Part shown: positions 6,001-9,000 of the stretch, piece by piece
How the letters are laid out: each line of letters starts with the position of its first letter
Numbering within the stretch: position 1 is the stretch's first letter
Virus record (IMG/VR): IMGVR_UViG_646311924_000013
Origin: a virus
Taxonomy: Duplodnaviria; Heunggongvirae; Uroviricota; Caudoviricetes
Strand: one strand, 5' to 3'
DNA length: 38,725 nt
Made by a program: the position numbers

Positions 6001-9000
6001 CGACGCCGTGGCAGCACATATTTTGTATCAAAAGCCGGGGAGCGTTATCGCCGGGCAGTGGCGCTTATTGTTCGCCAGCAGCGGCTGAAATTAAGCCTGT
6101 CCGGACGGCTGGCAATAAAAATTATTGCAGAACCACCGGATAAGCGCCGCCGTGACCTGGACAATATTCTGAAAGCACCGCTGGATGCGCTGACGCACGC
6201 GGGGTTGTTAATGGACGATGAGCAGTTTGATGAAATCAATATTGTACGTGGAAAGCCAGTATCTGGTGGACGTCTGGGGGTGAAGATTTACCCCATAATG
6301 CTTGAAGGGCAGGTTAAAAAATGAAACTGGAAGATTTACCGAAATACTACTCCCCAAAATCCCCTGGCCTGACCGATGCATCGGCCTCAACGTCAAAAGA
6401 TGCGCTGAGTATCACTGATGTGATGGCCGCGCAGGGCATGACACAGAATCGGGCTGAGATGGGGTTTTCTGCGTTCCTTGGGAAAATGGGCATTAGTATG
6501 AATGACAGAGAGCGGGCAACAGAATTGCTGACAGAATATGCACTCAGTCGGTGTGATCGCGTGGCGGCGTTAAGAAAACTCCCGGCAGAAATAAAACCGG
6601 CAGTGATGCGTATTATGGCTTCGTATGCGTTTGAAGATTATGCCCGTAGCGCGGCGAGCAAAAAACAGTGCCCCTGCTGTCACGGAAAAAAATTTATTGA
6701 AAGCGAGGTTTTTACAAACAAGATCCAGTATCCGGATGGTAAGCCGCCAGTGTGGGCAAAGTGCACAAAAGGCGTGTATCCGTCTTACTGGGAGGAATGG
6801 AAAAAAGTCAGGGAGGTGGTAAAAGTTGCCTGTCCGGAGTGTGGAGGGAAGGGAGAGGTATCCACTGCCTGTAAAGATTGTCGTGGGCGCGGTGTTGCCA
6901 TTCATCGTGAAGAGTCGGAAAAACAGGGTGTGCCGGTTTTCAGAAACTGTCAGCGTTGTGGTGGGCGTGGCTATGAAAGATTACCTTCAACGGAGGCATT
7001 TAATGCCATATGTAATGTAACCGATGCCATATCTCTTGATACATGGAAAAAAACAGTTAAACGTTTTTACGATACGCTGGTGGTGCAGTTTGATATTGAA
7101 GAAGCATGGGCAGAACAACAACTGAAAAAGGTGACCAGATAGCTTTGTTGATTTTTCCCGAATCTGTGGTAAATTTGCCCTAACGATGGGCGTTTTATGC
7201 CTGACGTTAGAAGATTTTTTACACCCCGCCGCCTGGCGGGTTTTTTATGACTGAAATCGCGTCAGTACAGTAAACGCGCTGGTGGCGGTGAATACCGGTC
7301 TTTCAGCTTGCTGGCTTTTTTGACAAGAGTTATTGGTGTGTCACGTTAACCGGAAAAGGGAAAAAAGCATGCTAAAACAGCAGGATATGACAGAAACCGC
7401 CAGAGCAGTGTTTAATGAATTAAGCGTCACCGAACCGGCGACAGTCGGGGAGATTGCGCAGAATACTTACCTTTCACGCGAACGCTGCCAGTTAATACTG
7501 ACCCAGCTTGTTATGGCGGGTCTGGCAGACTATCAGTTCGGTTGTTACAGACGCCTTCAGTCCTGAAGGCTTTTTTATTTGTGGTAAATGGGCGGCTGGT
7601 GGGTGTTAGGGGCACTCACCAGCCATCTGCTCATGCGTCTGGATCACAAGCAAACCTCAGGCCCACTGCTTTGCGCAAAAGCAGAATGAGCCTATCAGAG
7701 ACAGGCTTAATGATCCATGTTTAACACTGTAAAAATATCCAGTTGTGAGTTGATCAACGCTGACTGCCTGGAATTTATCCGGTCGTTACCCGAAAATTCT
7801 GTTGACCTGATAGTCACGGACCCGCCGTACTTTAAAGTGAAGCCTGAGGGCTGGGATAACCAGTGGAAGGGCGACGATGATTACCTGAAGTGGCTGGACC
7901 AGTGTCTTGCGCAGTTCTGGCGGGTGCTGAAACCTGCCGGAAGTCTTTACCTGTTCTGTGGCCATCGCCTGGCATCTGACATTGAAATCATGATGCGTGA
8001 ACGCTTCAGTGTGCTGAACCATATTATCTGGGCGAAGCCGTCCGGACGCTGGAACGGGTGCAACAAGGAAAGCCTGAGGGCGTATTTCCCCGCCACAGAG
8101 CGCATTCTGTTCGCGGAACATTATCAGGGGCCGTATCGTCCGAAAGATGCCGGGTATGAGGCGAAGGGCAGGGCACTGAAACAGCATGTGATGGCTCCGC
8201 TGATTTCTTACTTTCGTGATGCGCGCGCTGTCCTGGGGATAACGGCAAAACAGATTGCAGATGCCACAGGAAAGAAAAACATGGTGTCGCACTGGTTCAG
8301 TGCCGGTCAGTGGCTGCTGCCGAACGAAAGCGATTATCTGAAATTACAGGCGCTGTTTGCCCGGGTGGCAGAAGAGAAGCATCAGCGCGGTGAACTGGAA
8401 AAGCCCCACCACCAGCTGCTGGAGACGTATACTTCACTGAACCGGCAGTATGCGGAACTGCAGAGTGAATATAAACATCTGCGGCGGTATTTTGGCGTGA
8501 CGGCGCAGGTGCCGTACACGGATGTGTGGACGCATAAACCGGTGCAGTACTATCCCGGGAAACATCCGTGCGAAAAACCGGCAGAAATGCTGCAGCAGAT
8601 AATCAGTGCGAGCAGTCGTCCGGGTGACCTGGTTGCAGATTTCTTCATGGGGTCGGGTTCGACAGTCAAAGCCGCGATGGCGCTGGGGCGTCGTGCAACT
8701 GGCGTTGAGCTGGAGACTGAACGTTTTGAGCAGACGGTCAGGGAAGTACAGGATTTAGTCAGTCAGAACGGATGATATTGCAGGATTAGTTACGTACCGT
8801 TATTATCCTGCGCCCGGCCCTTTAGCTCAGTGGTGAGAGCGAGCGACGCATAATCGCCAGGTCGCTGGTTCGAATCCAGTACAACGCGCCACACTTATTT
8901 TCCCTGGCTCGCTTTTGCGGGCCTTTTTTTAAATGTCTCACAATTCAGGCGGTTGACTGTTGTCTGGTTTGCGGGGAGTTTGTTAAAAGAAACTGGCATG

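Follow-up and report, generated by a model that had tools for sequence, protein, structure and literature searches.

A probable chimeric tRNA pseudogene from a 174-nt deletion in the ileZ-argN-argO array of a lambdoid prophage

The window, a 38,725-nucleotide stretch of Caudoviricetes DNA (IMG/VR record IMGVR_UViG_646311924_000013), carries a tRNA-like element downstream of the Q gene and of a DNA methylase gene, and upstream of the STnc100/AgvB pair of small RNAs. The features of the locus are:

6321-7142: Q gene
7717-8775: DNA methylase gene
8810-8815, + strand: native spacer GCGCCC 5′ of ileZ, outside any tRNA
8816-8891, + strand: chimeric tRNA-like unit (tRNA position 1 is 8816)
8816-8864, + strand: ileZ-derived part, tRNA positions 1-49, identical to intact ileZ except for T to G at 8848
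8816-8822: acceptor 5′ strand, GGCCCTT
8825-8840: D arm
8842-8858: anticodon arm, loop CGCATAA, anticodon CAT at 8849-8851
8848, + strand: G33, in place of U33 of the anticodon loop; T in every aligned intact array
8864-8880: T arm
8865-8871, + strand: crossover zone CTGGTTC, an exact repeat common to the T arms of ileZ and Arg-UCU
8872-8891, + strand: argO-derived part (tRNA-Arg UCU), with no difference from the 3′ end of the third tRNA in intact arrays
8881-8887: acceptor 3′ strand, ACAACGC
8888: discriminator G
8889-8891: encoded CCA end
8906-8930, + strand: intrinsic terminator after the array (terminator scan), stem GGCTCGC/GCGGGCC followed by a T run
8967-9159, + strand: STnc100 sRNA, 144.5 bits
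9161-9222, − strand: AgvB, an anti-GcvB sRNA, 96.5 bits, 62/62 match to the model consensus

STnc100 and AgvB form a convergent pair immediately 3′ of the element, each with its own terminator. The same arrangement at the moron site of the Sakai prophages Sp10 and Sp17, and the moron region downstream of PR′, were described by Tree et al. 2014 (PMC4104026), a paper that covers the neighbouring sRNAs and not the tRNA remnant.

The three inner arms of the element are preserved. As the first-pass annotation had stated, the D, anticodon and T arms are intact on sequence; all three align to the Rfam tRNA model with posterior probabilities near 1, and they keep their conserved loops (D-loop GG, UUCGAAU-type T loop). 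The anticodon stem contains an A27-C43 mismatch, as it does in intact ileZ, and the hybrid T stem has G49-U65. Functional elongator tRNAs have a seven-base-pair acceptor stem; here the two strands, already described as unable to pair, can form two of the seven Watson-Crick or wobble pairs (G1-C72 and U7-A66; GGCCCUU against ACAACGC). The G reported at position 33 in place of U is indeed present, at 8848. U33 is nearly universal in tRNAs and is required for the U-turn of the anticodon loop.

Gene predictors gave a consistent picture. ARAGORN found no tRNA in the whole window. Even with T33 restored in silico and thresholds lowered to 60-70% of their default values, no CAU tRNA was found, and the output was limited to a nonsense call with a four-base anticodon. 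Since ARAGORN remained negative once T33 had been restored, the main defect of the element is its unpaired acceptor stem. The run of a tRNA predictor that had been proposed to expose misread boundaries thus yielded no paired acceptor stem, relaxed thresholds included. The Rfam model RF00005 gave a local match to the element (8822-8881, model positions 7-64 of 71; 37.3 bits, E = 1.9e-4), whereas its intact homologues are matched end to end, ileZ at 72.5 bits and Arg-UCU at 70.1 bits. At normal thresholds tRNA gene predictors did not recognise the element from end to end. Its fold energy is no better than that of shuffled sequences (z = -0.97, compared to -4.03 for intact ileZ). An alternative acceptor stem, in which the upstream GCGC (8810-8813) pairs with the GCGC at 8884-8887, was not accepted as genuine. 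These four GCGC/GCGC pairs do appear in the minimum-free-energy fold of 8800-8935, but that fold is again no better than shuffled (z = -1.05) and does not recover the cloverleaf. The stem of the terminator is present in the same fold.

The resemblance to a tRNA is not due to chance, because the element matches, nearly base for base, parts of two real genes of intact arrays. When the segment 8700-9000 was compared by BLAST with complete E. coli genomes and phage records, full-length matches came in two pieces that span ~475 nt and lie over genes annotated as tRNA-Ile, tRNA-Arg and tRNA-Arg. Three intact arrays were aligned with the window: those of an O112ab:H8 prophage, phage Nil3 and Stx2 phage ArgO145. 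In each of the three, ARAGORN found CAU, UCG and UCU tRNAs in that order. Where these arrays hold three complete genes, the window holds one fused unit, and argN is wholly absent. Alignment to intact arrays, a check suggested earlier for the tRNA cluster of Stx phages, revealed a clean gap of 174-176 nt against all three arrays. The window tracks ileZ up to GGTCG, continues through the CTGGTTC common to both parents, and then follows Arg-UCU from G8872 through CCA and the terminator, which is conserved 3′ of intact arrays. The flanks are colinear with those of intact arrays and 93-96% identical to them.

The two parental contributions can be delimited precisely. The ileZ-derived part (8816-8864) comprises the acceptor 5′ strand, the D arm, the anticodon arm (CAU), the variable loop and G49; the core earlier likened to a CAU-anticodon Ile2/Met-type tRNA is therefore ileZ, as established by alignment to intact arrays. 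The argO-derived part (8872-8891) comprises the remainder of the T loop, the 3′ strand of the T stem, ACAACGC, the discriminator G and CCA. ACAACGC-G-CCA is the exact 3′ end of Arg-UCU, the third gene. The crossover zone is bounded by the ileZ-specific G8864, which is G49 and the first base of the T stem, and by the argO-specific G8872. On this alignment the element has two parents, ileZ on the 5′ side and argO on the 3′ side; to describe it as an Ile core inside an Arg shell would be wrong.

The boundaries and flanks proposed in the first-pass annotation were right in part. The sequence of 8810-8891 is as it described, but the tRNA-like unit proper is 8816-8891, and 8810-8815 is upstream spacer. 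Of the two flanks thought to look like arginine-tRNA ends, the 3′ one is the end of Arg-UCU, whereas the upstream GCGCCCG is the ordinary spacer before ileZ. Its reading as the 5′ end of an Arg tRNA was discarded: the same spacer stands before intact ileZ, and the Arg tRNA genes of the array begin with CCGCCAT and GCGTTGT. The spacer 5′ of intact ileZ reads GCGCCCGG or GCTCCCGG; GCGCCC precedes ileZ in Nil3 and ArgO145, and the variant GCTCCC is found in the O112 array.

The two CTGGTTC copies have a spacing of 174 nt in O112 and Nil3 and of 176 nt in ArgO145; the missing segment has the same length in each case. This segment contains the 3′ end of ileZ, the whole of argN (Arg-UCG) and the 5′ three-quarters of argO (Arg-UCU). 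In-silico deletion between the CTGGTTC repeats of the Nil3 array gave the sequence of window positions 8770-8930 apart from two differences, namely the flank SNP at 8784 and the T to G change at 8848 (U33G). Both parents and the breakpoint can thus be named, and the product matches the prediction. Together with the alignment to intact arrays, this bears out the earlier suggestion of a collapsed remnant of an ileZ-argN-argO array. The T-arm repeat reads CTGGTTCAAATCCAG in ileZ and CTGGTTCGAATCCAG in argO, with 7 nt exact and 14/15 positions identical overall. Some ileZ alleles, those among the swine ETEC matches, already carry the G in this repeat, and given such alleles the homology usable for deletion may have been up to 15 nt. 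Collapse at the longer 9-nt repeat TTAGCTCAG was also considered, and was rejected because none of 5,426 complete E. coli genomes matched the junction that it predicts. Within the intact array, argN (L002, 1700-1776) scores 43.4 bits with Rfam, compared to ~70 for its neighbours, and contains four non-canonical pairs; it may be atypical or weakened as a tRNA even where it is present.

The distribution of the junction was examined with a 62-nt query, with which the intact genes share no 28-base seed word. This query matched 190 of the 5,426 complete E. coli genomes. In 162 of the 5,426 the match is perfect over both G33 and the junction (100% identity), and a genome has at most two copies; the other matches correspond to an unrelated swine-ETEC ileZ variant and to one Arg gene. 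Carriers include O157:H7, O145:H28, O111:H8, O121:H19 and O45:H2 strains. The allele is also present on 22 IMG/VR contigs, all 22 with G33. It was absent from all 50,697 phage records of INPHARED, and GTDB species representatives gave no match. One could suspect that an assembler had merged the tandem tRNA repeats, as short-read assemblies can collapse similar genes in tandem. However, reads are far longer than the shared repeat of only 7-15 nt, and one and the same junction, always with the private SNP G33, was seen in 162 complete genomes assembled independently of each other and on 22 IMG/VR contigs. We consider such an artefact extremely improbable.

The junction and the substitution at position 33 were always found together. 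With a T33 version of the query, G33 chimeras ranked first at 61/62, so no chimera in the 5,426 genomes retains T33. Conversely, no intact ileZ with G33, which would show as a 42-nt partial match to the junction query, was found in the same 5,426 genomes. Deletion and U33G are completely linked, and therefore the allele has one origin. Three flank haplotypes surround its copies (examples are the window, SJ7 and EH031), and the genes next to the copies differ between them. The 76 nt of the chimera are identical across all three, and the divergence of the flanks extends to its borders. Most simply read, the allele arose once, and homologous recombination then carried it from one lambdoid prophage to another, the crossovers falling in conserved tRNA sequence.

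Different flanks could also have been produced by independent deletions at the same T-arm repeat in several prophage lineages. This repeat is a plausible slippage hotspot, and flank haplotypes A and B occur beside intact arrays too. Yet G33 is in every chimera and in no intact ileZ, so that each event would have needed the same substitution. Moreover at least one copy, L020, has mixed flanks (B upstream, A downstream), which points to recombination, and the lack of any collapse at the longer 9-nt repeat in the 5,426 genomes indicates that collapse is infrequent. Recurrent deletion is accordingly very unlikely, and a single origin followed by recombination remains the preferred explanation. Copies with the EH031 flanks (L005, about 3192-3260; also L007, L013 and L027) show a 5-nt CCACA duplication directly after CCA; their terminator stem has several substitutions, and ~29 nt are inserted behind the terminator.

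The following course of events best accounts for these data. The ancestor was a lambdoid prophage with the usual tRNA-Ile2(CAU)-tRNA-Arg(UCG)-tRNA-Arg(UCU) array located between the DNA methylase gene and the moron/sRNA region, downstream of Q and PR′. The T arms of ileZ and argO are near-identical, and slippage or unequal recombination at these arms led to a single 174-nt deletion that fused the first and third genes. The product kept three arms and the CCA end, with mismatched acceptor strands. As no constraint was left after loss of the acceptor stem, U33G was then gained, and G18A in one sublineage. One allele subsequently moved among lambdoid prophages of STEC through homologous recombination at conserved tRNA sequence.

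Signs of relaxed constraint are found at positions that are invariant in functional copies. G33 is confined to chimeras in the 5,426 genomes and the 22 IMG/VR contigs. In two of the IMG/VR chimeras (L010 and L019) the first G of the D-loop GG (8832) is changed to A. This G18A change is also found in 2 of the 5,426 complete genomes, EL361 and the O103:H2 strain 129, both annotated as tRNA-Met like the chimeras. EL361 is a confirmed chimera that also matches the junction query; strain 129 is like the chimeras by annotation only. The serotypes with the chimera are thus O157, O145, O111, O121 and O45, and probably O103 through the G18A variant of strain 129. No change restoring acceptor pairing or any helix was found among the chimera copies. 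Sampled carrier genomes hold 6-10 ileZ-like loci, and the lost tRNAs are therefore redundant in the cell.

RNase P, aminoacyl-tRNA synthetases and EF-Tu recognise the helix in which the acceptor stem stacks on the T arm. The two acceptor strands of the chimera, being of different parentage, are unable to pair, and the chimera therefore lacks this helix. We are highly confident that the element is a non-functional chimeric tRNA pseudogene generated by a 174-nt deletion in the ileZ-argN-argO array, a loss of function that we infer from its structure. One annotation speaks against this reading: PGAP, which uses tRNAscan-SE, calls the element tRNA-Met without a pseudogene flag.

Because the element sits in the moron region downstream of PR′, it is probably transcribed passively within the Q-dependent late transcript. 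This location, beside known regulatory sRNAs (PMC4104026), together with the intact three arms and CCA end and the sequence identity in three diverged flank haplotypes and several serotypes, would fit a chimera kept as a working tRNA-like RNA that does not decode. Such an RNA could act as a structure that aids processing or stability where the methylase mRNA ends, on its 3′ side, as a decoy for a tRNA nuclease or modification enzyme, or as a source of tRNA-derived fragments. The identity of the 76 nt could in this respect be read as purifying selection, but recombination inside conserved tRNA segments and a recent origin account for it equally well: all copies derive from one recent allele, and identity is expected without selection. 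Furthermore, the acquired changes strike U33 and G18, among the most conserved positions, which a mimic should keep. Fold stability is no better than shuffled, no compensatory change restores a helix, and the allele is missing from the 50,697 phage records and the GTDB species representatives. We therefore regard a retained tRNA-like function as very improbable. Slightly less probable still is the narrower proposal that the chimera is kept as a tRNA-shaped module of the late transcript, for instance by resisting nucleases at the 3′ end, by signalling processing or by acting as a decoy for tRNA-directed enzymes; if true, it would explain the 76-nt identity across prophage backbones and serotypes. 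The most likely interpretation is that of an ordinary pseudogene.

The element can be compared with several known systems. The ileZ-argN-argO array of Stx and lambdoid phages (933W-type, Nil3, ArgO145, phiP27 and many STEC prophages) occupies the same locus, 3′ of Q/PR′ and the DNA methylase gene and 5′ of the terminator and of the moron or stx site. Its upstream spacer and downstream terminator are near-identical to those of the chimera, whose 5′ 49 nt match ileZ and whose 3′ 20 nt match the Arg-UCU gene. In contrast to the array, the chimera has one fused unit for three genes, 174 nt gone, mismatched acceptor strands and G33 for U33, and it would supply none of the three decoding functions of the array (AUA, CGA/CGG and AGA/AGG). 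The tandem tyrT genes of E. coli are the classical case of tRNA gene loss and fusion by unequal crossing-over. There too, deletion between direct tRNA repeats of a tandem array leaves one hybrid gene. However, the tyrT repeats are isoacceptor copies and the hybrid works, whereas the partners here differ in identity and share only a T-arm motif, so that the hybrid has no acceptor stem. Like bacterial tRNA pseudogenes and "tRNA-OTHER" calls, the chimera has a cloverleaf-like core with a reduced covariance-model score and lesions at invariant positions. Unlike them, its exact lesion and both parents can be named, and PGAP gives it the product name tRNA-Met. Events of this kind, in which a tandem tRNA array loses or fuses genes and a tRNA pseudogene remains, are familiar; the specific chimera is newly diagnosed. 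In the searchable literature on ileZ/argN/argO, chimeric tRNAs and O157 tRNA pseudogenes, the early 933W and Sakai genome papers being outside this scope, no account of the allele was found. Two articles (PMC5552260 and PMC2858043) deal only with intact arrays and with the ambiguity of Met/Ile naming, and a published strain comparison presents this naming difference as a genome difference (PMC5552260).

The interest of the chimera is largely practical, as a correction to annotation and as a marker of prophage recombination. PGAP annotates it, without flagging a pseudogene, as a 71-nt tRNA-Met that starts at position 6 (window 8821-8891). This unflagged "tRNA-Met", which is unable to form an acceptor stem, is present in at least 162 complete RefSeq E. 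coli genomes. It inflates tRNA counts and could mislead analyses of codon usage or tRNA repertoire in STEC prophages. In the chromosomes sampled, PGAP names the intact CAU gene tRNA-Ile and the chimera tRNA-Met; several phage records name the intact CAU gene tRNA-Met. The prophage lineage of the window has lost all three rare-codon tRNAs usual in Stx phages beside the toxin/moron site. Since the allele combines a single origin and a private SNP with several flank haplotypes and serotypes, it is a convenient natural tag for tracing recombination among lambdoid prophages. The general understanding of tRNA and phage biology is unaltered by it.

Some further features of the region were noted. A simple scan of 7100-9400 found no sigma-70 consensus promoter. 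Two terminator-like hairpins (7176-7240) lie just 3′ of the Q gene, where tR′ is expected. The PV15-279 record, which served for annotation, does not differ from the window over 8700-9000. Its prophage has none of the IS insertions, and this interrupts an otherwise colinear match to the whole window. Over the identical segment PGAP places a partial pseudo "hypothetical protein" at 8986-9129 on the − strand, wholly inside STnc100 and opposite to it, which is probably a spurious CDS call. The prophage of the window carries two IS insertions, which we count among the signs of decay, both IS3-family copies (1-930 and 12433-13742) that are 100% identical over 930 nt. The first is cut by the 5′ end of the window, the second lies between the holin and lysozyme genes, and each contains an ALIL frameshift pseudoknot.
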